Positions 1,324 to 62,464 are shown, counted from the first letter of the stretch. The stretch is DNA of 64,000 bases from Candidatus Altimarinota bacterium (GCA_963677745.1 OY782391.1:1248001-1312000), one strand, 5' to 3'. Program-made: numbers and translations. The notes: generated by a model not told the origin, from the sequence alone.

Positions 1324-4300
1324 GTGAGAAAAAAAACTGATAGAATATTGTCGCGCTATATTAACCGCAGACACGGCCCCAAATTTATACTGGTAGCCAT
1401 GTGTCTTCTTGTTACAGTTTTCTTCCAGATGAGCCAGATAGCTCTGGCCTCTGGAGTAAACAAATGGGCCAGCCTTTTGCAGGTCAGCAACTCCTACTCA
1501 TCCCACAATAATGTCATAGTTCCCACTTCCGACGGCAAATACATTATCGTCTGGGCTCAGGAAGTTAGCTGGGATGATGATCTGTATGCCATGAAAATCG
1601 AAAACCTGGGATCATCCGGACAAAACGTCTGGGGAGCACCTGTACAGCTTACCAACCTCTCCGGCAGTGAACCGGATCAGGAGGGGGGCCTCTCTGTGGT
1701 AGCGGATGGCAGTGGTGGGGCGTATATCGCTTACCGCCGCAACGGACCAGATGTTTATGTCCAGCACATCGACAGCAGTGGAGCGATCTGGCAAATGAAC
1801 GGAGAAAAAATGTATTACGATTCCACGGTGGAAAACTGGGAGACCCAGCCCAGTTTATTGTATGACTCTACATCGGGCGGCGTCTACGTAGCCTGGCATG
1901 ATGCTCAGTCCTTCGGCAGTTTCAATAATTATGTTTACCTGAGCCGACTTGGCAGTAGCGGCAGCGTTCATGCCAACTGGAATACCGGAGACGGCGACCC
2001 CAATCACACCTATCGTCCCGTCAGAGTAGGGACTTCGGATAACGCTGAACGTCCATTTCTGATCGATAATGCCGCTGACCTGCCTTTAGTCACTACCATG
2101 AATCTCGATGCCACCAGGTCTGTCACGGCATTCAGGTATAGCGCGACCGGAGCCCCGAGCTGGGGGCCTACCACCATCACGGATGCCAATAATATGTATA
2201 ACAATTCCGACACTTACATTGCTGTTCCCGACGACAATGATGGTATCTATCTGGCTTACGAATCTTTGACCGACGAGGTTCACGCTGTCCAAATCAGCAA
2301 TTCCGGAGCTGTCGGCTGGAATTCCACGGTGTTTACGCCGGGAGCGGAGGAACAGCTGGATTCAGCTTCTTACATTCATGGTATCAATGATGGCGACGGG
2401 AACTTCATGGTAGTTTGGGGAGTACAATCCACTTCAGATTTTTCCTACGACCTCTTTACCCAAAAAGTGAATTCCAGCGGTTCGGCTTTGTGGAATGAAG
2501 GCACTCCCTACCAGGTCTTCGACGACCCTTCAAAAGGCAATAGAATGCTAAAAGATAACAACTATTCGATTGTGAGTGACGGTCAGCAGGGACTGATCGT
2601 TGCTGCCTACAAGTTTTCACAGAACAAAGTCAATCTTCAACATCTACTCAGTGACAGCACCAGGGATTATGGGGACTGGAATTATGTAATGCCCTATTCG
2701 AGTTACTATCACTCTATTGCTCCGGATGGGCAGGGGGGCGCAATCATTTCCTACAATATCAGCAGAATATATGCGCAGCGTTATAATAATCCCGCGCCCG
2801 CCGCACCTTTCAGTCTTACCGCCGATTATCAGGCGGGAGGCGGAGTTCATCTGGAATGGGCAGGTTCCTATAGCCCTCCAGCCACCTTCAGAATTTATCG
2901 TTCAACCAGCCAGGGAGGCCCCTATGCATTCCTGGACGACAGCGCAACAGACACCTATGACGACCTCACTGCGGAAGGCGGCATTCCCTATTATTATGTG
3001 GTCAGGGCTTACAGAGGAGGGGAAGAAAGCACCAATTCCAACGAAGCATCAATTATTCTGACGGCTCCCGCATCTCCGCAGAATGTTGGAGGTGAGTCGG
3101 GCAATCAGACCACTCATATCTATTGGGACGCCTCAACCGGTGCGGACAACTATGACGTCTATCGTTGTGAGACGGCAGTATGTGACTATCCCCTGGATCT
3201 CGTGAGGATTGCTGAGGGGGTGGCTGATTTATTCTATAACGATTCTGCACTATCCAACGGGACTGAATATACTTACTCGGTCAAGGCAGCCAATTTGTAC
3301 GGGGATAGTGAATATAGTGCATCGGTTGATCTGATGCCTACTGCAGGAGGGCCCTCTCCATCAATTTCTTATACAATTGAGAACTTCACCTGGATTGGTG
3401 CCACCAATGTAAATATCGAAATATTTGGGCAGAATCTTGATAATGCAATCAGCGTTAATGTCGGAGGTGAAAATTGTAGTATTTCTGTAAACCAGACAGA
3501 TTATATCACCTGCCAGTTAGCCAATGTCCCTGCAATAGCCGGAAACAGCAGTCTCAACCTTTTTACACCCAATGGCCCGGTATCTGTATCATTTTATATC
3601 TACGGCCCTCCCAGCGTTTCAGACATGACTCCGGTTTCAGGTTTCTCTACCGGCGGAACTCCGGTAACAATTTATGGAAGTGGTTTTGGCTGGAACACAG
3701 TGGTGGAATTTAATGGTAATCCTGCCAATGTCGTGGATATATTTACCGATGCCATCGAAGTAGAAACACCGGCAGGCACAGCCGGTCAGACAGTTCCGGT
3801 GATTGTAACCAACCCAGGAAATCAGACCGCCTCTGCAGGTAATTTTACCTATGTTGCTGCTCCGGTTCCACCGGGAGAATGGTGGAAGCACGGAATAACA
3901 GGAGACGGATTGATTATCTCGGATTATCCGGACGGAGACGTTCCCTATCAGTTCGACCCGCAGGCAATCAGGACCTCGGACGGTCATTATCTGTCGGTCT
4001 GGGTAGATGATCGGGAAGATTCAACCAGTCATTTGTATGCCAAAAAGATCAATGAGACCGATGGAAGTTCCTTTGCGGGATGGCCGGACAACGGCCTGGC
4101 TGTAACCAGCTTTAATCTGCCGGTGCCCAGCGAAAATACCGAAAACTTCAGCCTGTATTCAGACAATGCCGGAGGCGCCTATGTAATTTTTGACTATGTG
4201 GACGGCAGCGGACAAGAACTGGTCTATGCTCAAAGATTGTCTTCGGCAGGAAGCCGTTTATGGACCGACACAGGTGTGGCAATCGAAACCCCTCTATCAG

Positions 4301-5889
4301 GTCACGACCGGAGTATTTATGGAGCAGCCGGCAGCAACGCTGCCGACGGTCTATATGTCAGCTGGAGCAGACTGGACAGCGGTTTTAACTTTGAAGATTT
4401 TTACCTGACCAGACTCAATGCCAACGATGGTTCTACAGCTTTCTCTCCGCTGATTATAGACAGCGGCAATACTACGGATGAGGGCAATACGCAGCTCGGT
4501 GTCGACAGCAACAACAACGCCATGTTCTTGTATACCAAGACCGGCAATCTTGCTCTTGCCAGTTCAAGAATTTCACCATCCGGAACAGTCACACCAGGTC
4601 CTGTCATTCAATCCGGCCAGGAAGATTATGATTTTACGGCATATTTCTATGCGATAATGGCCAGTGATGGGCAGGATGGCTACTTTATCACATATTTGGG
4701 CATCAACAGCTCGGATGAAACTGAACTGAGGGCCAGAAGAATTTTGTCCGGTCTCACCCTGGACAGCAATTGGCAAGTCAATAACGCAGGTGATTTAACC
4801 GGTATTCAACTGGCCAATAATATACAGGGAATTGAGAATATGAATATAGTCGGGGACGGAAGCCAGGGTGCTTACTTCGTCTGGGATCAGTTTGTTGGGG
4901 CGGGTAAGGAAGGTGCTTATGATATATATGGCCAATATGTTGGATCCGATGGACAAAAGAACTGGGGTGGTGGTGACGGAGTAGGTCTTAGTGATACTGG
5001 AGATGATGTCGATCAGTTTTTGACTTACGAGGGAAATGTAGCCATATCTGATAATAACGGAGGATTTATTTACACCTACTTCGACGAAAACTGGGAATCA
5101 CAAATCGGGCCAAGTGTTTTTGCACAAAGGGTTGCCAATGATATTGACAACTATGAAAACCTATGGCCGATCGCCTCACCTGATACTGTCGGCTATGATC
5201 TCGGCGGCCTCACTTCTGGACGGGATCGGAAACCGGTGCTGGTCAGTGACGGAGCGGTTGGCGCAGCTGTTTTCTGGATTGGATATGATGAAAACACCGA
5301 ATACTACGATCTCTATGGTCAATACCTGACAGGCCAGGAGGAAGCCGGTGGCGGAGGAGAGTGTCTCGCCGGGCCCGGACAAACCTGCGGAGAGATTACT
5401 ATCGGATGTAACCTCGGTGGAACAATTTCCATCAGCAATATTACGCCGGAGGCCACTTTTGAACCCCGCTCTACCAACTTTTATCAGGATCCCACCAACG
5501 CACCCCTGGATAGTAACATCCAGGTGGACATAACTGACACACGCGGTTATGGAAGTTGTGGCGATGCTTCAACATTATCAATACAGAGCACAGGCTTGGT
5601 CCTGGGATCCTCAACACTGGGACTGAGTCTTGGAACTGCTTTGACGCAGGGAAACATCACTTGTCCTGGCGACAATTGTGTACCAGATTCCGCCCATCTT
5701 TCAGATGTAGCTACAACCCCCGGAACAACCGGCAGCATCGCCACTGGTGCTGACGTGTTAAACCTTTCAGAGGGCTTTGACGGTACAATCAGACTGCAAT
5801 TCAGCAGCAACAACCTGGAAGTGGTAAAGCCATCCAGCCCGATCAGCAAAGGTGATTATGTCGGAGATATAATCTTTACATTGATCTAA
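1324..5889 (+). CDS. large secreted surface protein 1 (propeller-like DGxGG repeats, 2x FN3, IPT/TIG, C-terminal WxL-like cassette)
   Basis: 1521 aa; signal peptide ending ALA; repeated SDGxGGAxxxW...YAQR units; FN3 motifs (YRIYRS-like, YYYVVRAY); IPT motifs (PVSGFSTGGTPVTIYGSGF). Confidence 0.85.
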   Translation: MRKKTDRILSRYINRRHGPKFILVAMCLLVTVFFQMSQIALASGVNKWASLLQVSNSYSSHNNVIVPTSDGKYIIVWAQEVSWDDDLYAMKIENLGSSGQNVWGAPVQLTNLSGSEPDQEGGLSVVADGSGGAYIAYRRNGPDVYVQHIDSSGAIWQMNGEKMYYDSTVENWETQPSLLYDSTSGGVYVAWHDAQSFGSFNNYVYLSRLGSSGSVHANWNTGDGDPNHTYRPVRVGTSDNAERPFLIDNAADLPLVTTMNLDATRSVTAFRYSATGAPSWGPTTITDANNMYNNSDTYIAVPDDNDGIYLAYESLTDEVHAVQISNSGAVGWNSTVFTPGAEEQLDSASYIHGINDGDGNFMVVWGVQSTSDFSYDLFTQKVNSSGSALWNEGTPYQVFDDPSKGNRMLKDNNYSIVSDGQQGLIVAAYKFSQNKVNLQHLLSDSTRDYGDWNYVMPYSSYYHSIAPDGQGGAIISYNISRIYAQRYNNPAPAAPFSLTADYQAGGGVHLEWAGSYSPPATFRIYRSTSQGGPYAFLDDSATDTYDDLTAEGGIPYYYVVRAYRGGEESTNSNEASIILTAPASPQNVGGESGNQTTHIYWDASTGADNYDVYRCETAVCDYPLDLVRIAEGVADLFYNDSALSNGTEYTYSVKAANLYGDSEYSASVDLMPTAGGPSPSISYTIENFTWIGATNVNIEIFGQNLDNAISVNVGGENCSISVNQTDYITCQLANVPAIAGNSSLNLFTPNGPVSVSFYIYGPPSVSDMTPVSGFSTGGTPVTIYGSGFGWNTVVEFNGNPANVVDIFTDAIEVETPAGTAGQTVPVIVTNPGNQTASAGNFTYVAAPVPPGEWWKHGITGDGLIISDYPDGDVPYQFDPQAIRTSDGHYLSVWVDDREDSTSHLYAKKINETDGSSFAGWPDNGLAVTSFNLPVPSENTENFSLYSDNAGGAYVIFDYVDGSGQELVYAQRLSSAGSRLWTDTGVAIETPLSGHDRSIYGAAGSNAADGLYVSWSRLDSGFNFEDFYLTRLNANDGSTAFSPLIIDSGNTTDEGNTQLGVDSNNNAMFLYTKTGNLALASSRISPSGTVTPGPVIQSGQEDYDFTAYFYAIMASDGQDGYFITYLGINSSDETELRARRILSGLTLDSNWQVNNAGDLTGIQLANNIQGIENMNIVGDGSQGAYFVWDQFVGAGKEGAYDIYGQYVGSDGQKNWGGGDGVGLSDTGDDVDQFLTYEGNVAISDNNGGFIYTYFDENWESQIGPSVFAQRVANDIDNYENLWPIASPDTVGYDLGGLTSGRDRKPVLVSDGAVGAAVFWIGYDENTEYYDLYGQYLTGQEEAGGGGECLAGPGQTCGEITIGCNLGGTISISNITPEATFEPRSTNFYQDPTNAPLDSNIQVDITDTRGYGSCGDASTLSIQSTGLVLGSSTLGLSLGTALTQGNITCPGDNCVPDSAHLSDVATTPGTTGSIATGADVLNLSEGFDGTIRLQFSSNNLEVVKPSSPISKGDYVGDIIFTLI
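5362..5889 (+). repeat. 528-bp constant C-terminal cassette, copy 1 of 4
   Basis: Near-identical DNA and protein at 12337-12864, 19173-19700 and 21402-21929; same length from first Cys to stop. Confidence 0.95.
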
Positions 5890-5902
5890 GTAATAAACAA
5901 TC

Positions 5903-5940
5903 AAAAAATACCGACGGAATTTCCGTCGGTATTTTTTTTT
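5903..5940. terminator. bidirectional intrinsic terminator between surface protein 1 and rplA
   Basis: AAAAAATACCGACGGAA-T-TTCCGTCGGTATTTTTT perfect inverted repeat with A/T tails between convergent genes. Confidence 0.9.
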
Positions 5941-5959
5941 CCTATCTAAAACGATAAGT

Positions 5960-6661
5960 CTATAACTCGCTCAAAGCAGCTTGAGTATCGAGCTTAATGC
6001 CCGGTCCCATGGTGGTTGCCACGGACAGACTCTGAATATAAGTTCCTTTAGCCGTTGCGGGCTTAGTATCTACAATGGCCTTGATCAGTTTTTTCAGATT
6101 GTCTTTCAGATCGGCCTCCGAAAAGGAAACCTTCCCGAAGATATTGTGCATCTGACCCTGTTTATCTGTTCTGAATTCAACTCTTCCCAATTTCAGTTCT
6201 TTGATAGTCTTTCCAATATCCGGGGTTACGGTTCCGGCCTTGGGATTTGGCATCAAACCTTTGGTACCCAAAGTCTTGGCGATTTTACCAAGATTTTTCA
6301 TAACTTCCGGACTGGCTACCGCGACATCAAAATCCAGCCATCCTTTGACAATTTCCTCAATCAGTTCATCCAGACCGGCTTTGATGGCACCTGCTTCTTT
6401 GGCCTCCTTGACCTGTCCTTCACCGACAAACGCAATCACTCTCACATCTTTACCTGTACCGTGTGGTAATGACACTGTCGATCTGACCAGCTGGTCAGCC
6501 TGGCTCACATCCACTCCCAGTTTCACGTGCAGCTCGCAGCTGGAATCAAACTTGGTGGTGGAGGTCTTTTTCAGAAGCTCGCAGGCTTCGTCCAAACTAT
6601 AAACTTTGTTGCGGTCAATGTTTTCCACAACTTTGCGATAATTTTTCCCTTTCTTTGCCAT
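5960..6661 (-). CDS. rplA: 50S ribosomal protein L1
   Basis: MAKKGKNY, LPHGTGK, GLMPNPKAGTVT, TTMGPG. Confidence 0.99.
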   Translation of the reverse strand: MAKKGKNYRKVVENIDRNKVYSLDEACELLKKTSTTKFDSSCELHVKLGVDVSQADQLVRSTVSLPHGTGKDVRVIAFVGEGQVKEAKEAGAIKAGLDELIEEIVKGWLDFDVAVASPEVMKNLGKIAKTLGTKGLMPNPKAGTVTPDIGKTIKELKLGRVEFRTDKQGQMHNIFGKVSFSEADLKDNLKKLIKAIVDTKPATAKGTYIQSLSVATTMGPGIKLDTQAALSEL

Positions 6662-6676
6662 AAATGTATATCTTGC

Positions 6677-6711
6677 GTGGTTTTAACGCCGGACCGACAT
6701 CCGGCTCCCAC
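6677..6711 (-). promoter_or_regulatory. L1-binding autoregulatory RNA leader upstream of rplA
   Basis: Minus strand reads GTGG-GAG-CCGGA-TGTCGG-TCCGG-CGTTAAAA-CCAC, matching the known L1 operator (GGGAG...AAAAC internal loop between two helices), 15 nt before the rplA ATG. Confidence 0.75.
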
Positions 6712-6727
6712 AAAAATAAATAATAAA

Positions 6728-7150
6728 CTAACTCTTTGCTCTGGATTTTTTCCAGTCCAGTTGAATCAGCCAGAAATGCAGCAGCCAGACCGGAAAACCA
6801 ACCAGGGTCAGCGCTACGGATTCCGAAATCTGTCTGTTAAATTCGTTCTGTTGTTGAATTTCCTGTTGTTTCACCATGGCCAGTTCGCACTTTTGAGCTT
6901 CCTCGGTTGATACCATGATTTGCTGCTTGCCGTCGGGAGACCATCTGTATTCACAGTTGGATTTCTCGTAAGGCATGGTGTAGCTGAAATAATTGTTTAC
7001 CGGAAACCAAACATTCAGCACCAGTTTAACAGCTCCCGAAGCTCCCATGATAAAGCAGATCAAACCGATAATGGCGGCCAGACTTAGATAAATAGTCCTT
7101 ATATACTGGAGTGCAGTTGGCTTGTTGTGCGGACCGATAGTTTTTTCCAT
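6728..7150 (-). CDS. DUF5671-like two-TM membrane protein inserted between rplK and rplA
   Basis: IRTIYLSLAAIIGL...VALTLVGFPVWLLHFW pattern, common in CPR; Cys pair in the loop. Confidence 0.65.
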   Translation of the reverse strand: MEKTIGPHNKPTALQYIRTIYLSLAAIIGLICFIMGASGAVKLVLNVWFPVNNYFSYTMPYEKSNCEYRWSPDGKQQIMVSTEEAQKCELAMVKQQEIQQQNEFNRQISESVALTLVGFPVWLLHFWLIQLDWKKSRAKS

Positions 7151-7161
7151 TGTTTTGATGA

Positions 7162-7590
7162 TTATTTTTCAACAACATCTACTCCCATGCTGCGGGCGGT
7201 GCCGGCAATAATTTTCATGGCGGCCTCCACGTCATTGGCGTTGAGGTCGGGCATCTTTTTCTCGGCAATTTCGCGCAGTTGAGCATTGGTGATTACTCCC
7301 ACCTTGTCTTTGTTGGGAACACCTGAACCTTTGGGGATTTTAATTGCTTTCATGATCAGAACGGCGGCCGGAGGAGTTTTCAGGATAAAAGTAAAAGACT
7401 TGTCTTCGTAAACCGTGATTTCCACAGGGATGATCGTGTCTCCCATTGGGGCGGTGGCCGCGTTAAACTGGCTGCAGAAACCTGGAATATTCACACCGTG
7501 CTGGCCGAGTGCCGGACCGATCGGAGGTGCTGGATTGGCCTTGCCGGCCGGTATCTGTAATTTGATTACAGTATGTATCTTTTTTGCCAT
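7162..7590 (-). CDS. rplK: 50S ribosomal protein L11
   Basis: MAKKI start at 7590 (not 7638); [24 protein letters not shown]; IAGTARSMG. Confidence 0.99.
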
Positions 7591-7648
7591 AGTAAATTGA
7601 TTGATTGTAAACGACTGACACGAGTGTAGAAGCGGCACCCGCCAAGTC

Positions 7649-8413
7649 TTAGATTAATTCCGAAAGCAGTTTGGAGGTCAGTTCAAAATAAGTCAGGTCT
7701 CCATCTTTAGCCTTCGGGTAGCTCAGAGCATACACGTTGGTTCTGGTTTTGACAACTAAAAATGCCTGGTCTTTGGGCACCTGGAAATTTATATAAAAAG
7801 AGCTCAAACCAAACTGATTTGTTTCATTGATGGTAACCCCCAGTTCATCCTTGATTTTTGCCCTCAGAAAATCATAAATCTCCTGAGTACTGGCATCGTC
7901 GGTAAAATTGAATTCATAAACTCTCAACACTGGCACCTCATTACCGTCAATTATCCGGGTAATTTTTTTATCCACAATGTCCAGATAACTGAGCATATTC
8001 AGATCAAAAAGCCCAAACAACTGTCCGTCAAAAGGGCGGGGCTTGACGATAAAATCCCGGTAACCTGCCTTGTCCAGAAGCTCATTGCTGATATTTCTGG
8101 TCAGAAGTTCGGTCTCGGCCGGATCGGTTTCGTCAGTTGTCGGATCCGGAATATTGTCTGACACCAGATTATTCACCAAATCTGTAAGTTTGTTTTCCTG
8201 CTTGGATTCCGCCGTAACAATCTCAACACTGGTATCCTGGTCAAACGCCCCCACAGTTTCAACCGGCTCCTGTTCTTCCGTTTCATCCGCACCCGCGCTG
8301 GGAAAAGGCTTTCTGACAGGGGAATCCTCCACATTGCTCAGTGCGATAAACAACACTATCAGAATGGACAGGATGGAGATTAAAGCCAGTGCTGTGGAAG
8401 ATTTGCTATGCAT
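7649..8413 (-). CDS. membrane-anchored acidic hypothetical protein
   Basis: N-terminal TM, acidic linker, globular C-terminus; ATG at 8413 preferred. Confidence 0.7.
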
Positions 8414-8510
8414 ACAGCAATAATAAACCACCGGCTAGGCAAAAAGTAAAGAAACGAAATTCAGTAACATTTAAGAAAAAGTCTACCAAGGTAATTGTTA
8501 GAACTTAGCA

Positions 8511-8544
8511 AATATGTTAAAATAACAAGATATTTTTTAAATTA
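8511..8544 (+). promoter_or_regulatory. conserved extended -10 promoter element of the surface-protein family
   Basis: AATATGTTAAAATA..AGATATT..TAAATT; recurs at 13043 and 19871. Confidence 0.7.
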
Positions 8545-8559
8545 TGTAAAAACAAATCA

Positions 8560-12864: not shown

Positions 12865-12887
12865 TCTGGAAAGTAATTAGAGATATC

Positions 12888-12919
12888 AAAACAGCCCCGC
12901 CGTACGGCGGGGCTGTTTT
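12888..12919 (+). terminator. intrinsic terminator (duplicated at 21953)
   Basis: AAAACAGCCCCGCC-GTAC-GGCGGGGCTGTTTT. Confidence 0.9.
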
Positions 12920-13042
12920 CTAATCTAAAAATTCTATCCGTAATATTCGGCAACCAGACTTGAACCCTTGTCAAATACTCCAACGGTTTCCGTTGTTTTT
13001 TGCTCTTCTGCCGTAAAGTAAACAGTTGGCAGAGGGAGGGGA

Positions 13043-13076
13043 AATATGTTAAAATATAAAGATATTATCTAAAATT
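13043..13076 (+). promoter_or_regulatory. conserved promoter element, copy 2
   Basis: AATATGTTAAAATATAAAGATATTATCTAAAATT. Confidence 0.7.
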
Positions 13077-13094
13077 GATAAATAAAAAAACACA

Positions 13095-16000
13095 ATGCTA
13101 CAGCCAAAAATCATCCACACAGCGAAAAAGCTTCACTGCCATATTAAAACACATGGTTTCAAATACCTGGCCGGTTTGGCTGTTTTTTCTATACTGACCA
13201 CGGCCTTTGTCTATCGTCCATCCCAGACTCCAACTGCCAAAGCCGCGGCCAGCTATCTATGGAATACAATGTTGAATCCCGAAAACGCAACATATGAAGA
13301 TAGTGCAAAAGTGGTTCGAACATCATCTGGAAATTATTTTGTAGCCTGGGAAGAATCAGTGGCCTATGATTCAACAGACGACATAAAAATGGCCAAAATC
13401 GATGTCGATGGCAATCTAATCGGATCAATTATAACCGTAACGAACAGCGCTGCTAATGACGAAAATCGCGTGCAATTGGCTCCCGATAATTCAGATGGTG
13501 TTCAAATAGTGTTTACTACAGAGGCAGATGTTTATGCAGCTCATTACAATTCCAGTGGTAGTCTGACTTGCAGCAATGCAATATACCGGGGAAACGTGAA
13601 TCCTGGCGGTGGTGGAAACAAGGAACAAGTGGCAATGGAGACAATTCCCCAATTGCTGCACGATGGAAATGGTGGAATGTATTTTAGCTGGATTTTATAT
13701 GATGGTAACTGGCGGACCTATGTCACACACCTCGGTTCGGATTGCAATATGGACAGTGCCTGGAATCCCACGGTTACCAACTATGGTCCGTTCAAAGTTA
13801 TTGAAGCGTTAAACGTCGATGGCAGTAGCTTTAAAATGACTAGTGGCGGCAATAATGCCATGATCTGGACCGGTGATGATAGTGCATCAAATTATCTTAT
13901 TACTAACAAAATAGATAATACCGGTGCCTATGTGACCGGCTGGACAGGTACAAAATATGTATATACAGGATCAAGTACTTCTTCCGCTCACACAATTGCG
14001 TCGGATGGCAGTGGGGGATTGGTTGTGGCACACCAGGATTCAGCCGCCCTAATGGTGCATTTAACACACCTTAATTCCGATGGAACGGCAGATACTAATT
14101 GGGGCGGAACAGGAACGATTGACGTCTTAGACACTCCCTCAAATAGTCTGAATTGGGCCAGAGTAATTAACGATGGTACCAACAACTTCATTGTAACCTG
14201 GACTCGTGGGGAGGCGGGGCCTATCTACCACCAGTATATCCAAAAAGTATCCGGTTCTGATGGCCAATTACTTTGGGGAGCAGGCAGTCCGATAGAGGTT
14301 ATTTCGTCTGATACTAACGCACTGGCATCGGGCTCCACGGATAGTATTGTTCCGGACACTCACGGAGGTGCCTACCTGAGTTATACTACTTTTATGTGGG
14401 GATACAGACGCATACAAAACGTTAAATCTGACGGGTCGCTTGATTTTGGCAATATGGGTTATATGGATGGCCGCATATCAAATGGGTGGGAGCCCACCCT
14501 GGTTGTCGATGGGAGCGGAGGAGTGATAGCCGTTAGAACAGAACAATCTGATGCGCCTGATTTTGACTGGGATATTTTTGCGGAACGAATTGAGTCTGTC
14601 CCACAGATCGATTATGTCTCTCCAAACTATTCCTATATTGACGCTAACAATGTTATTATTACAATTTCGGGCAGCAGTCTGGCCGACATGACTACTGCCA
14701 CAGTCGGCGGTGAGCCCTGTACTCTTATTACCAAATCATCTTTTTCGTATGAATGCGAAGTAGCCACTATGTCCCATACGGCAGGATTGGTTGATGTATA
14801 TTTGGAAGGTCCTTCTGGCAACACTGGCTCCTCGGGAAATAATCTTTTTCAAATATATGGCCCACCAACTGTTACGGGTATGTCTCCCAACCATGGCAGT
14901 CCTGTTGGGGGGACCGAAATTACCATCAATGGTGACGGTTTTGGACCCGAGACCACAGTTTCATTCGGCCCAACCCTGGCCAATATTAGTACCTCATCGA
15001 GTGACAGAATTAATTTAACCTCCCCTGAAGGTACCCCAGGAGTTGTTGCAGTAACCTTAACCAATCCTGGAAATCAGACTGTTTCAGCAGGGGACTTTAC
15101 CTACGACGCATATCCCAGAGAAGGAGCATGGTCTGTCAATAATATATTGAAGGATGGTTATCCTGATATAACACAACTGTCCAAACAAAATCCATATATT
15201 ATCAAAGCCTCTGACGGTAATTATATTGCTGCCTGGACGCGTTACGGATCTGATATGGACCAGGACATTATTGTACAAAAGATTGATCAGACGGATGGTC
15301 ATTCCATCTGGCCTGACGATGGCGGGGGGAATGGCGGTATGCAAATAACCGACCTGGATGCCACAACCTACAGCCAGAATATTCAAACATATTCACATCC
15401 CAACCTGATAGCGGATAACAGTGGCGGTGCGTATTTTATCTTCAGGGAAGATCACTCATCTGTCGGCGGCGGACTAGATTTGATGATTCAACATGTCAGG
15501 GCTGACCATTCGTTACAATATGGACCTAATCCGCTTAATCTGACCAACAATTTGTCCGGTGTTGAAAATGACACCTACAATATCATCAGTGATGGCGCAG
15601 GCGGAGTATATGTCGGTGGATCAAACATTGATTGGAATACCGAGGAAAGACACGTTTTTGCCATGCGAGTTGCCTCTGATGAAACAGTCACTCCTATGCA
15701 GCCCAGTGGAGGAAATTTCCCTATTGGATCGCAAAGTCCGGCATTAGCGCTGGATAGTAGCCAGAACCTCTATGTAGTCTATAAAGTAATACAACCAGGC
15801 ACATCCACACACACCATCGAAGCACAAAGGTTTGCTCCCGACGGCACCAAACCGGGCGTCGGGCTGGATTGGCATGACACATTTAACATGCCATTGGTGG
15901 CCGGTGAAGAAATATATTCTCATGAAATAGCGGTTGATAGCAGCAATAATATTATTGTGATTTATAGCTCTTATGTAGATCCGGTTTCCAGGGTTGCGGC

Positions 16001-19000
16001 CCAAAAGATTAGCAGCGATGGCAGTTCCAGCTCCTGGTTTACTCCAGGCGTCGGAGGAACAGCGCTGGTTGCCTCAACAACAAATCCGGGGAGCCTGCAA
16101 ATCGTGCCCGATGGAGCGGATGGTGCCATAGCTGCCTGGAATGAAGGTAATAATGGAATAATCTATGCCCAGAAAATCAACACCGGCGGAGTGACGCAAT
16201 GGGGCGCTGATGCTCTTCAGGTTTCCAGCGGAACAAGGTGGGATTCTTTGTCAATAGTGAATTCAATTACTTCGGATGGAGCTGGAGGAGTTATATTGGC
16301 ATACTCGAGCGACCAGATCACGTTGCAGAAAATAGATAGCTCAGGTGCTCTACAATGGCCCGAAGCTGCGCCAGGTACCAGTGGTTATACAAGTTTCAGT
16401 GAATATACCAATAACATGGATCAGAATCCGGCCCTTGTAGGTGATGATCTCGGGGGGGCGGTAGTAGTCTGGATGGGTAGAACTATGATCGGCTGGGACA
16501 GCTACGACAATGTCTATGCCCAACATTATCAAATAGACAATACTCCGGTGCCGCTCAGCGTAGACCCGGCTTTGGGAAGTCCGGCAGGGGGTACCAATAT
16601 CACCATCAGCGGTATTCATTTTATCGATGGTGGCACTACGGTAACCGTTGGTGGATTAGCCTGCCAAAACATCGTAGTTAATTCCCCGCGTGAATTAACC
16701 TGTGACACCCAGGCACATGAAGCTGGAACTGTTGATGTCTCTGTGACAACCATTAATGGCACATCTACATTGACCGGAGGTTATGAATATGGTGAACCTG
16801 TGATTGTTCCTGAAGGAACGATTGAATTACATATTGCTGACAGCGTCATCGGATCCAATAGTGATACCGGTGCCGGTATTTCCAATGGAGATGACGCAGG
16901 AGGGCTTGCAGATCTTGATTTTACCGGTGCTCCCGCTACCGCTCCAGACACTTTTTCAGGTGCAGAGATATATACATTTAATTCCGGTGTTCCAACCATG
17001 AATCCGACCGCGTTAAATATTGAAAATCTGGACGGATTTGATTTAACTGGAGCTGATAGTATTCACCTTTCCAATGAGGATGACCTGATTAGTACGGTTG
17101 TCCCACTTGGTTTTACAACCAAAATATATGGACGCGATGTTGATTCCGTTGTTGTCGACTCCAACGGTCTTGCCTATCTGAATACCAGTGCCGATATGTC
17201 TGTAAATGATAGCAGTTGTTGCAACGGTTACAGCATGTCAAATTACACCGGAGTCGATTGGCCTGCCTCTGTCGACGGGTCTGCAACAGGAGACATAATG
17301 ATTGCGGCGAAATGGACTGATCTCCTGCCGCAAGCAAATCCAGGATCTGCAATTACCTATTCTACAGACGGAGTGGCACCAAACCGCCGTTTTGTAATTA
17401 CCTTTGCGGATGTTCCGTATCTTGATCCGGACACGACTCAAAATACATTTCAGATAAAAATTCTCGAGTCGGGGCCTGGGAGCGGCGTTACTGTTACCAA
17501 CGTTTTACCTGCCTCCGGCACTGACGCAGGAGGAACCCCCGTTTTGATTACAGGAACAGGTTTCACGGGAGCAACTGCCGTCTACTTTAAAACTGGGGTA
17601 GATCCCGAACCGGGAACGGCCTGTATAAATTTACTTGTTATAAACGACACACAAATCGAATGCGAAACCGGAGCGCATGGAGCTGCTTTGGTCAACGTCA
17701 AAGTCGTCACGCCGGGCGGAGAAGGAATCGGAAACGGCTTATACACATATACTGGAGCGGCCGGTGGCGTCCCTACAGACCTCTGGGGATCAATCAAACA
17801 GGTGGAGGGCAACGGAACCAATCAATATTTTGCTCCATTTATCTCAAAAACTAACGATAATAATTACATTATTGCTTATGCGGATTCTACTCTTGGTACG
17901 GGAAACGGGGAAATAGTTGCCGAAAAAATCAATGCCACCACTGGTGCAGATATGTGGGCCAGTCCGGTACAGGTTTCCACTAATGCCAGTATGGACATGA
18001 GCAAAACCATCCAAATGATTCCCAATGCCAGCGGAGGAGTTTTCATGGCGTGGCAAAATGTCAATGGGGACATATTGTTGCAGAGTATTGATGGCTCCGA
18101 CGGGGCATTATTATGGGATGCTGTAAACATTTCAGAATCTTTTAATGCTGACAGCAAACCGGTGATGGTTTCCGATAATGCCGGAGGAGTCTATCTGGCC
18201 TTTGTAAGACACTTCCCGGAAGGACGCTGGGGAATCGATAAAACAGAAGTCACTCGCGTCAATGCAGAAGGAACCGTCCACTCAGACTGGAATACTGGCG
18301 GCATCGGCAATTACCGTCTCTTTCTGGTTGATCATGGTATTGGTTCTTTGCGAACTATTAAGACTAACTCAGACAATGACCTTTTTGTTCTGACAGCCCA
18401 GGGGTCCATTGCCTACGTTGACAAACTAGTATCCACCGGACAGACAGACCCCGATTTCCCTTCGGTCAGCACTAGCTTAATGGGAGATTCAGATGGCGAA
18501 ATATCAGATATCATTGTAAATACCTCGGGAGGAGTAACCCTCTTTTATGAATCTCAAATGTTTATTGGATGGCCAACCTATCATGTTTCGGCAATCAGCT
18601 ACAATGATACCGGTAACATCAATTGGGCTCATTATTCTGTTACGGCAAACAGTTATGACAATCGGGCGGAAGATGATATTGCAGATCTTCATGTACTGGA
18701 CATGGGAGCACAACAATTGATTGCCTATGAATTCAGTAATGACAATAAAATATATGCCCAGAAAATAGATGCCACCACCGGGGAACCGATTTGGGCTGCT
18801 CCTGTTTCGGTTACCGATTCCACTGATGATTCCAATGCCAGTTTCTATTCTTTATGGGGCAATGTAAAACTGGATGCAATGATCAAGGACACCGGTTCTG
18901 GTGCATTCTTCGTCTATACTTCACAGGGGGCAGACTTCTTCTATCGCGTTCATTTGCAGCATATAGATACTAACGGATTAAAGATATTTGGCTCGAATGG

Positions 19001-19700
19001 CTATGAGTTGGAATCTCTTCCTGGCCATAGCGATGACAATGCCCCTGCCATTGCAGGCAACAGTCTAAACGCGGGCGTCATAGCCTGGATGGGATATGAC
19101 AGTGATCTTAGTAATGCAACCTCAATCTATACCTTTGGTTTTGATTCCACACAAAGTGGAGGCGGCGGAGTATGTGGCGCCGGACCCGGAGAGACCTGTG
19201 GTGAAATCATAATTGGCTGTAACCTGGCAGGAACAATTTCCATCAGCAATATTACGCCGGAGGCCACTTTTGAACCCCGCTATACCAACTTCTATCAGGA
19301 TGCTACCAACGCACCACTGGAAAGTAACATCCAGGTGGATATAACTGACACACGGGGTTATGGAAGCTGTGGCAATCCCTCAACATTATCAATACAAAGC
19401 AGCGGCTTGGCTCTGGGAGCTTCCACACTGGGACTGAGTCTTGGCACTGCCTTGACGCAGGGAAATATCACCTGTCCGGACGACAACTGTGTACCAGATT
19501 CCGCCCATCTATCAGATGTAGCCACAACTCCTGGAGCAACCGGCAGCATCGCCACCGGTGCTGACGTATTAAACCTTTCAGAGGGCTTTGACGGTACAAT
19601 CAGACTGCAAATCAGCGGTGATAACCTGGAGGTGGTAAAACCGCTGGAGCCGATCAGCAAAGGTGATTATGTCGGAGATATCACTTTCACGCTGATTTAA
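13095..19700 (+). CDS. large secreted surface protein 3 (three propeller-like blocks, IPT/TIG domains, nidogen/NIDO-like domain, WxL-like cassette)
   Basis: 2201 aa; signal ending AKA; repeated DGxGG units; IPT motifs; NIDO-like PLGFTTKIYG...VDSNG...IAAKWTDL...PNRRFVITF...NTFQIKI. Confidence 0.85.
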   Translation: MLQPKIIHTAKKLHCHIKTHGFKYLAGLAVFSILTTAFVYRPSQTPTAKAAASYLWNTMLNPENATYEDSAKVVRTSSGNYFVAWEESVAYDSTDDIKMAKIDVDGNLIGSIITVTNSAANDENRVQLAPDNSDGVQIVFTTEADVYAAHYNSSGSLTCSNAIYRGNVNPGGGGNKEQVAMETIPQLLHDGNGGMYFSWILYDGNWRTYVTHLGSDCNMDSAWNPTVTNYGPFKVIEALNVDGSSFKMTSGGNNAMIWTGDDSASNYLITNKIDNTGAYVTGWTGTKYVYTGSSTSSAHTIASDGSGGLVVAHQDSAALMVHLTHLNSDGTADTNWGGTGTIDVLDTPSNSLNWARVINDGTNNFIVTWTRGEAGPIYHQYIQKVSGSDGQLLWGAGSPIEVISSDTNALASGSTDSIVPDTHGGAYLSYTTFMWGYRRIQNVKSDGSLDFGNMGYMDGRISNGWEPTLVVDGSGGVIAVRTEQSDAPDFDWDIFAERIESVPQIDYVSPNYSYIDANNVIITISGSSLADMTTATVGGEPCTLITKSSFSYECEVATMSHTAGLVDVYLEGPSGNTGSSGNNLFQIYGPPTVTGMSPNHGSPVGGTEITINGDGFGPETTVSFGPTLANISTSSSDRINLTSPEGTPGVVAVTLTNPGNQTVSAGDFTYDAYPREGAWSVNNILKDGYPDITQLSKQNPYIIKASDGNYIAAWTRYGSDMDQDIIVQKIDQTDGHSIWPDDGGGNGGMQITDLDATTYSQNIQTYSHPNLIADNSGGAYFIFREDHSSVGGGLDLMIQHVRADHSLQYGPNPLNLTNNLSGVENDTYNIISDGAGGVYVGGSNIDWNTEERHVFAMRVASDETVTPMQPSGGNFPIGSQSPALALDSSQNLYVVYKVIQPGTSTHTIEAQRFAPDGTKPGVGLDWHDTFNMPLVAGEEIYSHEIAVDSSNNIIVIYSSYVDPVSRVAAQKISSDGSSSSWFTPGVGGTALVASTTNPGSLQIVPDGADGAIAAWNEGNNGIIYAQKINTGGVTQWGADALQVSSGTRWDSLSIVNSITSDGAGGVILAYSSDQITLQKIDSSGALQWPEAAPGTSGYTSFSEYTNNMDQNPALVGDDLGGAVVVWMGRTMIGWDSYDNVYAQHYQIDNTPVPLSVDPALGSPAGGTNITISGIHFIDGGTTVTVGGLACQNIVVNSPRELTCDTQAHEAGTVDVSVTTINGTSTLTGGYEYGEPVIVPEGTIELHIADSVIGSNSDTGAGISNGDDAGGLADLDFTGAPATAPDTFSGAEIYTFNSGVPTMNPTALNIENLDGFDLTGADSIHLSNEDDLISTVVPLGFTTKIYGRDVDSVVVDSNGLAYLNTSADMSVNDSSCCNGYSMSNYTGVDWPASVDGSATGDIMIAAKWTDLLPQANPGSAITYSTDGVAPNRRFVITFADVPYLDPDTTQNTFQIKILESGPGSGVTVTNVLPASGTDAGGTPVLITGTGFTGATAVYFKTGVDPEPGTACINLLVINDTQIECETGAHGAALVNVKVVTPGGEGIGNGLYTYTGAAGGVPTDLWGSIKQVEGNGTNQYFAPFISKTNDNNYIIAYADSTLGTGNGEIVAEKINATTGADMWASPVQVSTNASMDMSKTIQMIPNASGGVFMAWQNVNGDILLQSIDGSDGALLWDAVNISESFNADSKPVMVSDNAGGVYLAFVRHFPEGRWGIDKTEVTRVNAEGTVHSDWNTGGIGNYRLFLVDHGIGSLRTIKTNSDNDLFVLTAQGSIAYVDKLVSTGQTDPDFPSVSTSLMGDSDGEISDIIVNTSGGVTLFYESQMFIGWPTYHVSAISYNDTGNINWAHYSVTANSYDNRAEDDIADLHVLDMGAQQLIAYEFSNDNKIYAQKIDATTGEPIWAAPVSVTDSTDDSNASFYSLWGNVKLDAMIKDTGSGAFFVYTSQGADFFYRVHLQHIDTNGLKIFGSNGYELESLPGHSDDNAPAIAGNSLNAGVIAWMGYDSDLSNATSIYTFGFDSTQSGGGGVCGAGPGETCGEIIIGCNLAGTISISNITPEATFEPRYTNFYQDATNAPLESNIQVDITDTRGYGSCGNPSTLSIQSSGLALGASTLGLSLGTALTQGNITCPDDNCVPDSAHLSDVATTPGATGSIATGADVLNLSEGFDGTIRLQISGDNLEVVKPLEPISKGDYVGDITFTLI
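19173..19700 (+). repeat. 528-bp constant C-terminal cassette, copy 3
   Basis: See copy 1. Confidence 0.95.
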
Positions 19701-19870
19701 TAACAATTAAAATATCGCTTGAGATTAAATTTCCGGGTGCAACACCTTGGCATGTAAACTTGTAAACGAAAAGTTGGTCTAACCCACTTCTTTTGAGATA
19801 TTCGGGTGAAAAATTAATCTGCGTAAATAATAGAAGACCAAAGCATTAAGCGGATAGACGGGAGCTTCAA

Positions 19871-19904
19871 AATGTGTTAAAATAAAAAGAATATTATTAA
19901 AATT
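19871..19904 (+). promoter_or_regulatory. conserved promoter element, copy 3
   Basis: AATGTGTTAAAATAAAAAGAATATTATTAAAATT. Confidence 0.7.
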
Positions 19905-19907
19905 CAA

Positions 19908-21929
19908 ATGAAAAAAATTAATAAAATATTCCTTGCTACCTTGCTGTTTGTATTATCAATTTCCATCGCTTTTGCGGACGGTGCCGGTCAGTGGCCAAAT
20001 ACAACTTCACCAGTACCAATGCAACTAATGCAGGAGGCCAATAGTACAGGTACCTACGGAGTCCGCACTTCCGATGGTAACTACATTATTGCCATGCAAA
20101 ACTATACCGGAATCAGTGCGCAGAAAATCGATTCCAGTGGAAATAAACTTTGGGGTGTCGGTGGAGAACCTGTTACTGTCACTGATCCGGCTGGTTGGTT
20201 TACGGAAATAGTTGCAGATAATGATGGGGGCGCTTTCATTACTTATACAAACATCAATACGCAGAATGTAGCAAGAATTGACAGCAGTGGAACGGTGCTC
20301 TGGCGTAGTGGTGATTTTGAACCGGGTAATTCAATAGAAAATTGGGGAAAAATTCTTCACGATGGAAATAATGGTGTTTACGTCTCGTGGCTTGGACACG
20401 ACTCAAACAATGATGTAGTCAGGGAAGTCACGCATTTGGGCCCGGACGGAAATGTGTGTACTATTGCCACTTGCGGTATCGATTGGAACAACGGAGGAAC
20501 TGGCACATTCAAGCCCGTAACTTTGCCAAAACCAGCCGGGGATGGAGTATGGCATTATCAGGCCAGGCTAATTCCTTCGGATTTGGGCAGTTTAATAGTG
20601 GTATACGGTGATTACTCGCCACGAGATAACGTTTATGCGACAAAATTGAATACCAACGGAACCTTCGCCTGGAACGCTCTTGATTATCGAATGATTGATG
20701 ACACCTACAACATTAGCTCTAATTCTTTCGCGGCAGAATCTGATGGAAGTAATGGAGTATATATCGGGTATCGGGTTAGCGACGGTACCAATGATTATTT
20801 AAAACTTGTTAAAATCAACTCGTCCGGAACCTTTACGCTTGGCACTGTTAACGGTGGGTCTGCCGAGGGAGTAGTGGTCAAGACTCTTGACAGAGCAATA
20901 GCATACATAGGTAATGATATGGTTAGTACTTCAGACGGCAATGGAAATTTATATTTGGGATGGAATGAACGGGATGTGGCAAGCGGTGTCTACGACACTT
21001 ATGTCCAAAAATTCAACAGTTCAGGTGTCGAACAATGGACCGCGGGTGGTAAATTATTGGGTACAATTGGTGATGATGTGGAAGACTCTTTCTGGAGCGA
21101 TACGATTAATATTCCTCATTCAATAGTCACAGACGGAAGTGGGGGAGCCATCATTGCCACCTCTAGATACAGTAATACTATTACCGAGGCAGTTGCCATG
21201 CAAAGAGTTTTAAGCAATGGAAGTCTGGACTGGGGAAGCGGATATATTGTTACAGCCGATATTGAAAATCATCAGGATGAATATCCGGATCTTGTTAGTG
21301 ATGGTACCGGAGGAGCTGTAGTTTCTTTCGTGCATATTGATGCTGATTGGAATTATTTTAGTAACGCTCAATATGTTAAAACAGCAGCTGCCGGAGGAGG
21401 TTGTGGGGCGGGTCCCGGTGAGACCTGTGGAGAGATCACCATCGGCTGTAACCTGGCAGGAACAATTTCCATCAGCAATATTACGCCGGAGGCCACTTTT
21501 GAACCCCGCTATACCAACTTCTATCAGGATGCTACCAACGCACCACTGGAAAGTAACATCCAGGTGGACATAACTGATACACGCGGTTATGGAAGTTGTG
21601 GCGATGCCTCAACATTATCAATACAAAGCAGCGGATTGGCTCTGGGAGCTTCCACACTGGAACTGAGTCTTGGCACTGCTTTGACGCAGGGAAACATCAG
21701 CTGTCCGGACGACAACTGTGTACCTGATTCAGCCCATCTTTCAGATGTAGCCACAACCCCCGGAGCAACGGGCAGCATTTCCACCGGTGCAGACGTGTTG
21801 AATCTTTCTGAAGGCTTTGACGGTACAATCAGGCTGCAATTAAGCGGTAATAACCTGGAGGTGGTAAAACCGCTGGAGCCGATCAGCAAAGGTGATTATG
21901 TCGGAGATATCACTTTCACTCTAATCTAA
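19908..21929 (+). CDS. secreted surface protein 4 (one propeller-like block + WxL-like cassette)
   Basis: 673 aa; signal peptide ending AFA; N-terminus GQWPNTTSP is paralogous to protein 2. Confidence 0.85.
   Translation: MKKINKIFLATLLFVLSISIAFADGAGQWPNTTSPVPMQLMQEANSTGTYGVRTSDGNYIIAMQNYTGISAQKIDSSGNKLWGVGGEPVTVTDPAGWFTEIVADNDGGAFITYTNINTQNVARIDSSGTVLWRSGDFEPGNSIENWGKILHDGNNGVYVSWLGHDSNNDVVREVTHLGPDGNVCTIATCGIDWNNGGTGTFKPVTLPKPAGDGVWHYQARLIPSDLGSLIVVYGDYSPRDNVYATKLNTNGTFAWNALDYRMIDDTYNISSNSFAAESDGSNGVYIGYRVSDGTNDYLKLVKINSSGTFTLGTVNGGSAEGVVVKTLDRAIAYIGNDMVSTSDGNGNLYLGWNERDVASGVYDTYVQKFNSSGVEQWTAGGKLLGTIGDDVEDSFWSDTINIPHSIVTDGSGGAIIATSRYSNTITEAVAMQRVLSNGSLDWGSGYIVTADIENHQDEYPDLVSDGTGGAVVSFVHIDADWNYFSNAQYVKTAAAGGGCGAGPGETCGEITIGCNLAGTISISNITPEATFEPRYTNFYQDATNAPLESNIQVDITDTRGYGSCGDASTLSIQSSGLALGASTLELSLGTALTQGNISCPDDNCVPDSAHLSDVATTPGATGSISTGADVLNLSEGFDGTIRLQLSGNNLEVVKPLEPISKGDYVGDITFTLI
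21402..21929 (+). repeat. 528-bp constant C-terminal cassette, copy 4
   Basis: See copy 1. Confidence 0.95.
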
Positions 21930-21952
21930 TCTGGAAAGTAATTACAGATATC

Positions 21953-21983
21953 AAAACAGCCCCGCCGTACGGCGGGGCTGTTT
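21953..21983. terminator. terminator between surface protein 4 and the convergent nusG
   Basis: Same hairpin as 12888-12919. Confidence 0.9.
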
Positions 21984-21996
21984 ATTTTAAATTCTG

Positions 21997-22542
21997 TTAT
22001 TTCTTCCTTACCTGCATGAAATCCAGTTCGATTGGCGTTTCGCGTCCAAAAATCGAGATCAGTACTTTTACCTTTCCTTTTTCTTCATCAACTTTGTTCA
22101 CCAGGCCGTCATAGTTAACAAAAGGGCCGTCCAGAATCATCACATGGTCGCCCACGCTGAAGTCAATCTTGAACTTGGCATCCTGTTCGCCCATCTGCTT
22201 CTTGACTATATTAAACTCATCCGGAGAAACCGGAACAGGCACATTCCCTGCACCCACGAATCCCGTAACATTTGGAGTATTTCTTACCACATACCAGGAT
22301 TCATCGGTAACCGTCATATCCACCAATACATATCCAGGGAAAATGCGCTTCTTTTCCGTGACCGGTTCACCCTTCTTGATCACGATTTGGGTTTCTTTGG
22401 GAACAACCACGTCAAAAATGTAGTCGTGCATGTTCAGTGAGTCAATTCTCTGCTTGAGAGCTTCAGCCACTGCGTCCTCGTATCCGGAGTAGGTATGAAT
22501 CACATACCAGTGTCTTCCTGTGTTTTCCGCTTGTCTGCCCAT
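21997..22542 (-). CDS. nusG: transcription termination/antitermination factor NusG
   Basis: WYVIHTYSGYE, FPGYVLV, VRNTPNVTGFVG, KOW domain GPF...IFGRETP. Confidence 0.99.
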   Translation of the reverse strand: MGRQAENTGRHWYVIHTYSGYEDAVAEALKQRIDSLNMHDYIFDVVVPKETQIVIKKGEPVTEKKRIFPGYVLVDMTVTDESWYVVRNTPNVTGFVGAGNVPVPVSPDEFNIVKKQMGEQDAKFKIDFSVGDHVMILDGPFVNYDGLVNKVDEEKGKVKVLISIFGRETPIELDFMQVRKK

Positions 22543-22778: not shown

Positions 22779-22897
22779 AATTGAATAAACCAATAAGTAA
22801 AAGCAGCAAAATTTAAACAAAAAAGAGCGGATTAATCAAGAACTTTTGAAAAAAAAGCCAATTTTTGCTAAAATTTATAGATAAACCATGCCTTGAA

Positions 22898-25025: not shown

Positions 25026-25158
25026 ACGGCTTAAAACAGAATAAAAGTTTGCAGTAGTCAACAGAATTTCCCGCCATCAACTTGGAAACGCCTCTTCCAT
25101 TTTGGTCCTTTTGGCTGAAACATGGTATAATTTAAAGATTCAAATTACACCAAACACT

Positions 25159-29952: not shown

Positions 29953-29958
29953 ACCAAT

Positions 29959-59225: not shown

Positions 59226-59239
59226 GAGGAGAAAACGAC

Positions 59240-60490: not shown

Positions 60491-60497
60491 GCCAGTA

Positions 60498-60650: not shown

Positions 60651-60661
60651 ATGGAGGAAAC

Positions 60662-62432: not shown

Positions 62433-62464
62433 CAAATCTATTTAAAAAATCTCTCACAAAAGAC

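Follow-up and report, generated by a model that had tools for sequence, protein, structure and literature searches.

Four large adhesin-like genes in a 64,000-nt stretch of the genome of Candidatus Altimarinota bacterium (GCA_963677745.1, OY782391.1:1248001-1312000; the window, in which positions are counted from the first nucleotide) encode proteins that end in one and the same C-terminal cassette. Our best reading, which we rate a little above an even chance, is that this cassette is a Trp-less variant of the WxL domain that docks interchangeable adhesins in a probable Patescibacteria genome. The four proteins would be Sec-exported adhesins with variable N-terminal payloads (propeller-like, RCC1 and IPT/TIG). 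Membrane-anchored chaperones of the DUF916 (WxLIP) type would hold the module common to all four C-termini via donor-strand complementation, after which donor-strand exchange (DSE) would join it to a fibre of small WxL-like subunits. Chaperones and small subunits would be supplied by a 12-gene locus elsewhere in the genome (C1:663154-692140), and the fibre would serve attachment to a host cell. The WxL domain is an incomplete Ig-like, pilin-type beta-sandwich. According to the available text of a preprint (10.64898/2026.10.17.759780), WxL domains are DSE pilin and adhesin-attachment modules, a docking or polymerising role reported experimentally for canonical WxL domains and, as far as that text goes, in Bacillota only. 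The same source describes ElrD, a small WxL protein, as polymerising by DSE, and ElrE, a DUF916/DUF3324 membrane protein, as the chaperone of ElrD. For the window proteins we infer cassette binding to chaperones and subunits, fibre assembly and a role in host attachment.

The four genes and their cassettes lie as follows.

1324-5889, + strand: adhesin-like gene 1 (P0001), 1521 aa; an N-terminal hydrophobic segment, two propeller-like modules of ~480 aa, IPT/TIG, a weak FN3 and the C-terminal cassette.
5359-5886, + strand: cassette copy 1, 528 nt or 176 codons; it diverges most of the four and has 35 sites private to it.
8560-12864, + strand: adhesin-like gene 2 (P0002), 1434 aa; a propeller-like module, an RCC1 propeller (246.5 bits), three IPT/TIG, a weak FN3 and the cassette.
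12334-12861, + strand: cassette copy 2, 528 nt.
13095-19700, + strand: adhesin-like gene 3 (P0003), 2201 aa; three to four propeller-like modules, four IPT/TIG stretches and the cassette.
19170-19697, + strand: cassette copy 3, a mosaic.
19908-21929, + strand: adhesin-like gene 4 (P0004), 673 aa; one propeller-like module and the cassette, with no Pfam family.
21399-21926, + strand: cassette copy 4, the copy used for the structure model.

An earlier interpretation of this DNA (the sequence-only reading) had proposed four secreted proteins of these sizes, and all four + strand reading frames are open at 1521, 1434, 2201 and 673 aa. Secretion was borne out in part: an N-terminal hydrophobic segment is present in 4/4 proteins and exceeds a Kyte-Doolittle value of 1.6 in three, that of P0003 being weaker, and the signal peptides are a by-eye reading of these segments. 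The proposed mix of domains also stood in part. IPT/TIG scored above the Pfam cut-off in three of the four proteins, as did RCC1 in P0002; FN3 fell short (17.5 and 18.3 versus 25 bits), a NIDO-like domain had no match in a Pfam scan of the four proteins, and the label 'propeller-like' reflects weak DUF5122 and delta-60 hints. The cargo is less varied than had been claimed, as a homologous N-terminal module of ~480 aa is common to all four proteins, in once to several copies per protein. It is repeated in P0001 and P0003, and the module of P0004 is 42% identical in amino acid sequence to that of P0002.

The central claim of the sequence-only reading, that an indel-free 528-nt module placed after GGG or GGGG ends 4/4 proteins, proved correct. 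Nucleotide identity is 86-92% in 6/6 pairs and collapses outside the cassette, to 24-30% in the 300 nt upstream and 21-46% in the 200 nt downstream. Six Cys and no Trp occur in the last 181 aa of all four copies, and both quoted motifs, QVDITDTRG...TLS and GDY.GDI.FTLI, occur as such. In amino acid sequence the cassettes are 88-94% identical, versus 24-42% for the N-terminal modules. Synonymous divergence (dS) between cassette copies is 0.31-0.54 and the ratio of nonsynonymous to synonymous divergence (dN/dS) is 0.08-0.14; the copies are under purifying selection. The first ~307 nt of copy 3 share 27 informative sites with copy 4 versus 5 with copy 2, while its last ~230 nt share 17 with copy 2 versus 2 with copy 4. 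This mosaic indicates that gene conversion acts on top of purifying selection.

That the copies reflect an assembly artefact, or a very recent duplication without functional meaning, is an explanation to which we assign virtually no probability. Short-read contigs do break inside every cassette, as at repeats, but the copies differ at 8-14% of bases, the synonymous divergence and dN/dS just given speak against it, and the genome is a single contig. Five sequencing runs from two studies, one of which may be the source of the assembly, contain 91-97% of the sampled words. In contigs from four runs of the two studies, each of the four unique N-terminal parts continues 75-100 nt into its own cassette with no differences, and the same contigs carry copy-specific inner cassette pieces, again with none. 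The sequence-only reading had named an artefact as what would undo it; given the dS values and the unique junctions, the copies are real.

A fifth, divergent copy, the only other one in the genome (contig C1; 1,335,835 bases, 97.9% complete) is H_212, a 212-aa standalone secreted protein (C1:687372-688010) with 34% identity to the cassette in the genome search and 33% in the alignment. A profile of the five copies was searched against 1.84 billion cluster representatives, and the family was found to be rare, with 40 proteins at E <= 1e-3. Seventeen long forms (560-2550 aa) carry the cassette at the extreme C-terminus in 17/17 cases, on payloads of TIG, fn3, Kelch, EPTP, DUF7948+SBBP, DUF285, RCC1 and Invasin_D3. 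Another 22 are listed as short forms (171-275 aa), most of them standalone with a strikingly conserved signal peptide; P0011 (275 aa), listed among them, seems to be a long-form fragment. P0039 was rejected as a repeat-driven false match. The C-terminal position in large proteins, together with small standalone secreted forms, constitutes a WxL-type arrangement, the small-WxL/large-WxL pattern being described in the available text of PMC10599100. The family was found in one of 401 genomes of a phylum-wide sample (the window's own only) and in four of 401 of a class-wide sample (the own genome, one strong match and two weak). Searches for related loci in genome contigs (alignment A1) and metagenome contigs (A1 and P0044) found none, and genomic context in other organisms comes from a single genome of another genus, G725.

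The sequence-only reading had also pointed to a resemblance to WxL domains, and this was upheld by profile comparison. With hhalign, the 30-sequence family alignment, signal peptide removed, matched a set of 20 PF13731-matching proteins of the same phylum, ~6 of which reach the Pfam cut-off, at 94.4% probability (E 8.8e-8, 145 columns at low mact). The reversed control scored 1.3% and ten column shuffles scored at most 0.3%. In this alignment three elements fall in register: the D-x-R-G block, the strand that follows it, and the G.Y....TFTL strand at the C-terminus. D65, R67 and G68 are invariant across the 30 family sequences; an Asp(W1-8)/Arg(W1-6) pair is described for WxL domains in the available text of PMC9772566. 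The W-x-L positions of the family read S-T-L and F-T-L, with Leu retained in both, and the spacing from D-x-R-G to the first motif is lengthened by an insertion with a conserved Cys-Gly. A colinear sub-threshold PF13731 match was found in 1 of the 28 family members scanned (P0025, 16.4 bits, E 0.0095), and in the ESM Atlas 8/30 feature matches fell in a cluster set with PF13731 on 20% of its members. In Paenibacillus, the phylum WxL profile scored 87.8% with an annotated WxL protein and 79.4% with the C-terminal part of the adjoining RCC1 protein, which ends FTFTL like the cassette. Within the phylum, PF13731 gave 30 matches at E <= 0.01 in 401 genomes, 10 of them above the cut-off. A PF06030 neighbour (E <= 1e-3, ~1.5-kb flank) accompanies 12 of the 30 WxL loci retrieved, above the cut-off in 9, so that canonical PF13731 and PF06030 gene pairs do occur there. 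Judged from its sequence, the cassette would be a very divergent, Trp-less and Cys-bearing member of the WxL superfamily, and this forms part of the best reading. The sequence-only reading had named a match to a well-described sorting domain of known function as a refutation, and this applies in part: the cassette appears to belong, distantly, to WxL, and since the function of that domain has recently been described, the novelty of the cassette is lowered.

The structure model is consistent with this placement. AlphaFold2 (AF2) run on cassette copy 4 with a 30-row alignment gave a mean predicted local distance difference test score (pLDDT) of 91.6 and a predicted TM-score of 0.82; with a 5-row alignment the pLDDT was 29.1. 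In the model, residues ~24-181 form one all-beta domain, and confidence is low in the first ~20 residues. Foldseek returned nothing at E <= 1e-3 (best E 3.4e-3), and its top rows were chaperone-usher subunits with TM-scores of 0.32-0.37. When Foldseek's best 1000 chains were aligned with VIA-align, the Csu pilin 7zl4 reached Z 7.2 (root-mean-square deviation 3.2, 116 residues aligned), and other Csu, PapA, FimG and CfaE entries Z 6.0-6.6. Chaperone-usher subunits made up 31 of the 50 top rows, at Z 5.8-7.2 and with 105-133 residues aligned, which lends the earlier suggestion of pilin likeness weak backing; the caution line of VIA is Z 8, below which values are common. TTHA1873 of Thermus, which we take to be SCPU-like, is a structural neighbour at Z 6.8-7.0. 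The cassette had no match at E <= 10 to the spore coat protein U (SCPU) family of Pfam, and the family profile matched no PDB chain sequence better than E 0.1. Other fold matches were to cohesin, integrin calf domains and a carbohydrate-binding module (CBM). The CLIPPER stalk domain 9ifr, the top VIA row at Z 7.2 and a domain named in a survey of isopeptide bonds, was set aside as a generic Ig-like fold match. The model thus fits an Ig-like, pilin-type sandwich and is no proof of one.

Upstream of this sandwich, after the Gly linker, lies a donor-like segment, G-E-I-T-I-G-C, which raises the possibility of a self-polymerising, polyadhesive fibre. Each cassette would then retain a donor-like strand of its own beside the groove, and the large proteins could chain to one another or insert repeatedly along a fibre instead of just capping it. 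The segment is conserved: across the 30 aligned sequences G16 and I20 hardly vary and C22 never does; in short forms, G-[ST]-Q-x-I-G-C stands right after the signal peptide. In the hhalign alignment it is paired, though with little confidence in the columns, with T-N-L-T-F-N-V, the N-terminal strand of phylum WxL proteins, and an Enterococcus faecium adhesin is predicted, in the available text of 10.64898/2026.10.17.759780, to both donate and accept a strand. We nonetheless find such a fibre distinctly unlikely: residues 1-27 are coil in the AF2 monomer, where the first 20 residues have pLDDT 51-71, and in the large proteins the segment is internal and not a free N-terminus.

Candidate WxLIP/DUF916 partners, which the sequence-only reading had suggested looking for, were found 560 kb from the window genes. 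H_212 lies directly between two DUF916 genes, G_400 and I_391, in a locus of 12 genes (C1:663154-692140) that holds all five PF06030 matches of the genome, at 663-691 kb. Three of these exceed the cut-off of 27.3 bits (A_384, 39.4; I_391, 38.8; K_230, 39.4) and two fall below it (G_400, 25.6; C_202). The order of the locus is as follows, with a C-proximal transmembrane (TM) segment marked where one was assigned.

C1:663154-664308: A_384, DUF916 + TM + LysM.
Second gene: B_1118, 59% to the phylum WxL profile (hhalign).
Third gene: C_202, weak DUF916.
Fourth gene: D_341.
C1:669303-671606: E_767, a signal segment, DUF916-like fn3_5, two hydrophobic segments (267-315) and ~450 aa with a WxL-like C-terminus.
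C1:672312-686093: F_giant, 4593 aa, 13 IPT/TIG stretches and GEVED domains.
C1:686106-687308: G_400, DUF916 + TM + LysM.
C1:687372-688010: H_212, the standalone cassette protein.
C1:688127-689302: I_391, DUF916 + TM + LysM.
Tenth gene: J_241.
Eleventh gene: K_230, DUF916 + TM.
C1:690731-692140: L_469, a membrane protein of Wzy_C (O-antigen-ligase) type.

The C-proximal hydrophobic segment was above threshold in four of the five DUF916-type proteins and weaker in C_202. E_767 matched the phylum WxL profile at 88.5% and could represent a fusion of chaperone-like and pilin-like parts. Several locus proteins other than the DUF916 ones end G.Y....TFT(L/I). J_241, D_341 and F_giant are not claimed as WxL-like beyond this C-terminal motif; when the family profile was compared with J_241, D_341 and the C-terminal ends of F_giant and E_767, hhalign values stayed at 0.6-2.0%. 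F_giant ends ...GTYITTLVFDF, a C-terminus not supported as WxL-like, and the gene is absent from the collinear locus of G725. In that genome 11 of the 12 locus genes are collinear at 30-55% identity, with the order of the DUF916 genes and H_212 kept. H_212 lies within 10 kb of DUF916 genes, which is the Elr-type linkage provided that H_212 counts as WxL-type.

Several features of this locus touch on its own biology. In the DUF916 proteins the single C-proximal TM segment and then a basic stretch precede the LysM, which is for that reason predicted to be cytoplasmic, an odd position for a peptidoglycan-binding module; the same DUF916 + TM + LysM architecture occurs in another genome of the phylum (L040:2069-3136). 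A Wzy_C protein closes the locus in the own genome and in G725 (L051:18043-19431) and adjoins a WxL gene in a third genome (L015:3-1262), and eight other WxL loci of the phylum adjoin PMT_2 glycosyltransferases. These Wzy_C and PMT_2 neighbours hint at glycosylation of the subunits. Among the matches listed (H1-H15) for a DUF916 query from the phylum, the nearest plasmid-borne relatives were mostly from Actinomycetota (Streptomyces, Clavibacter, Arthrobacter) and Paenibacillus.

The presence of LysM domains in the DUF916 proteins also bears on the classical view of WxL, in which the cassette would be a non-covalent wall anchor. It would attach directly to peptidoglycan or a different polymer of the wall and would just keep the four adhesins at the cell surface, neither a fibre nor strand exchange being involved. 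The Pfam names of PF13731 ('surface cell wall-binding') and PF06030 ('peptidoglycan binding domain') agree with such a role, WxL proteins are described in the available text of PMC10599100 and PMC9772566 as binding peptidoglycan via a hydrophobic platform of two WxL motifs, and the absence of linkage between the window genes and any chaperone gene fits an autonomous anchor. Yet the two Trp proposed as platform residues are absent from the cassette, the LysM domains are predicted to be cytoplasmic, and cryo-EM together with pull-downs has led to WxL being reinterpreted as a pilin fold (10.64898/2026.10.17.759780, in its available text). We regard anchoring without a fibre as rather unlikely; wall anchoring and docking are not mutually exclusive.

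We rate as very improbable that the cassette is a ligand-binding or sorting domain apart from any WxL function, whether lectin-like, for instance, or serving as a recognition tag for a different route of export. Direct Pfam tests fail, the fold matches are generic and Ig-like at Z < 8 (cohesin, integrin calf and CBM among them), and proteins with T4SS_pilin domains lie just downstream on the same strand, their T4SS-pilin/PKD set (22865-32601) being one conceivable route. Such a domain would leave unexplained the standalone secreted forms of ~200 aa, the adjacency to DUF916 in two genera and the 94% profile match with its clean controls.

As far as computation reaches, the common docking or polymerising adaptor inferred in the sequence-only reading is supported. 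The docking of adhesins by a Trp-less WxL variant, which we still favour, has a number of results to contend with. Without Trp, the cassette lacks both Trp-x-Leu motifs of PF13731. That model (25-bit gathering score) found nothing at E <= 10 when the entire genome was searched in six frames, and at the same E value the cassette was recognised by no model of Pfam or NCBIfam. The family hidden Markov model found none of the phylum WxL loci with default filters, and with filters off gave E 0.002-0.4 among 194 open reading frames (ORFs). Two single Bacillota WxL sequences scored 0.5% and 2.8% against the family profile, and because of these low direct scores the link from cassette to canonical WxL is a transitive one. 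All fold matches are below Z 8. An invariant Cys directly follows the putative donor strand and, if disulfide-bonded in cis, could hinder strand exchange. The cassette is 45-51% identical to short forms of other organisms versus 33% to H_212 of its own genome, the window genes are far from the chaperone locus (the 560 kb noted above), and G725 has the locus with no cassette-bearing large protein. PF11797 (DUF3324) had no match in the genome at E <= 1, so no protein of 150-800 aa combines PF06030 and PF11797 above threshold, and no LPxTG ending, an anchor that the preprint treats as optional, was seen, by eye, in the 12 locus and 4 window proteins; one sortase gene lies elsewhere (C1:1137100).

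The organism itself probably belongs to Patescibacteria, the candidate phyla radiation (CPR). Ribosomal protein L30 was absent from the genome and found in 14/14 control genomes; loss of L30 marks CPR. The DUF5671 and T4SS_pilin families in the window also fit this assignment, as does the genome size of 1.34 Mb, with 0.5-2.0 Mb for the genomes listed in the phylum sample. Cultivated members of the group live on other microbes. How the ultrasmall CPR cells attach to hosts is largely open, and type IV pili are the system named in abstracts. If the best reading is true, these bacteria have, besides such pili, a fibre system that works by another mechanism and presents exchangeable giant adhesins, and the range of the WxL/DUF916 assembly pathway extends beyond Bacillota. 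The cassette is an unmodelled variant of a recently described domain, in a phylum without a reported WxL system, and its family merits a profile model of its own. No paper joining 'WxL' with 'Patescibacteria' was found in the literature searched, 'DUF916' with 'candidate phyla radiation' returned one unrelated review, and a term search of the main text of 10.64898/2026.10.17.759780 gave no mention of Patescibacteria, CPR or metagenomes. According to that text, the preprint's screen demanded PF13731, PF06030 and PF11797 at gathering thresholds in RefSeq reference proteomes; as PF13731 and PF11797 find nothing in this genome, the system would be invisible to it.

A bolder version of the proposal combines these elements, and we put it forward tentatively, as improbable in its entirety. 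An ultrasmall, probably episymbiotic Patescibacteria/CPR lineage would build a DSE fibre on its surface from Trp-less, disulfide-bearing WxL-like subunits with membrane-tethered DUF916-LysM chaperones and no sortase anchor. Giant adhesins encoded elsewhere would plug in repeatedly through one gene-converted cassette with its own donor-like strand, giving a polyadhesive organelle of host attachment and extending DSE pili beyond Bacillota.

Around the cassettes, the window shows the following flanking features.

5903-5937, + strand: terminator-like hairpin 3' of gene 1, with a 16-pair stem and then a T run.
12865-12920, + strand: 3' flank of gene 2, ~55 nt in common with gene 4; a G+C-rich hairpin and a T run.
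21930-21985, + strand: 3' flank of gene 4, in common with gene 2; hairpin read from the flank sequence.

The shared ~55-nt flank of genes 2 and 4 indicates that the duplicated unit extended beyond the stop codon. The adhesin genes break a cluster that is normally compact: ~14 kb of them, on the opposite strand, separate nusG (21997-22542, - strand) from rplK (7162-7638, - strand) and rplA (5960-6661, - strand). Beside rplK are a DUF5671 protein (6728-7150) and a 260-aa ORF of no family (7649-8431). Directly downstream of the adhesin genes, four + strand genes occupy 22865-32601; T4SS_pilin (PF18895) was found in three of their products (366, 355 and 1616 aa), and PKD arrays in the 1616-aa protein and in the next, of 880 aa. 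At 59200-63500 the G+C content is 0.56-0.66 versus ~0.46 elsewhere, with long overlapping ORFs on both strands; this stretch gave no Pfam match, no Rfam match (E <= 0.01) and no tandem repeats.

Among known systems, chaperone-usher pili (FimH, CfaE, PapA, CsuA/B) resemble the window proteins in joining a variable binding part to a constant pilin domain, and they supply the best structural neighbours; unlike them, the cassette shows no sequence relationship, and Z is too low to prove a shared fold. An usher or a PapD-type chaperone did not come up, in an analysis with no search aimed at either. With the PF13731 WxL proteins and Csc clusters of Lactobacillales, the cassette has in common the colinear F...V.D.RG, [W/x]xL and C-terminal G.Y....[W/F]TL elements, the invariant Asp and Arg, and the cluster logic of small form, large form and DUF916. 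It differs from them in reading STL, after the Cys-Gly insertion, and FTL, and in scoring below the gathering threshold. The Elr WxL pilus of Enterococcus faecalis comprises a tip adhesin (ElrA), WxL pilins (ElrD and ElrC) and a DUF916/DUF3324 chaperone (ElrE), as given in the available text of 10.64898/2026.10.17.759780. As in Elr, the large secreted proteins combine a payload that varies at the N-terminus with a WxL-type module that stays constant at the C-terminus, the small standalone forms begin with a signal peptide, the small form has DUF916 neighbours with a C-proximal TM segment, and one genome can hold many adhesins. Unlike Elr, the cassette has extra conserved Cys and lacks Trp and a PF13731 match, the genome lacks PF11797, the chaperone-like proteins end in LysM with no LPxTG terminator seen, and 560 kb separate the adhesin genes from the locus of the chaperones; the putative system lies in a 1.34-Mb genome outside Bacillota. 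A further comparison is offered by the Paenibacillus urinalis plasmid NZ_CP118110.1, where a DUF916 gene, a WxL gene (189 aa) and an RCC1 gene (1048 aa) occupy 5809-10741 of the locus. In contrast to P0002, the P. urinalis protein still has the first Trp (RGNAKGWQY), the genes of its locus stand side by side and its profile scores to the cassette family are 0.5-2.8%. With its RCC1 payload on a C-terminal WxL ending in FTFTL, it is a Bacillota counterpart of P0002.

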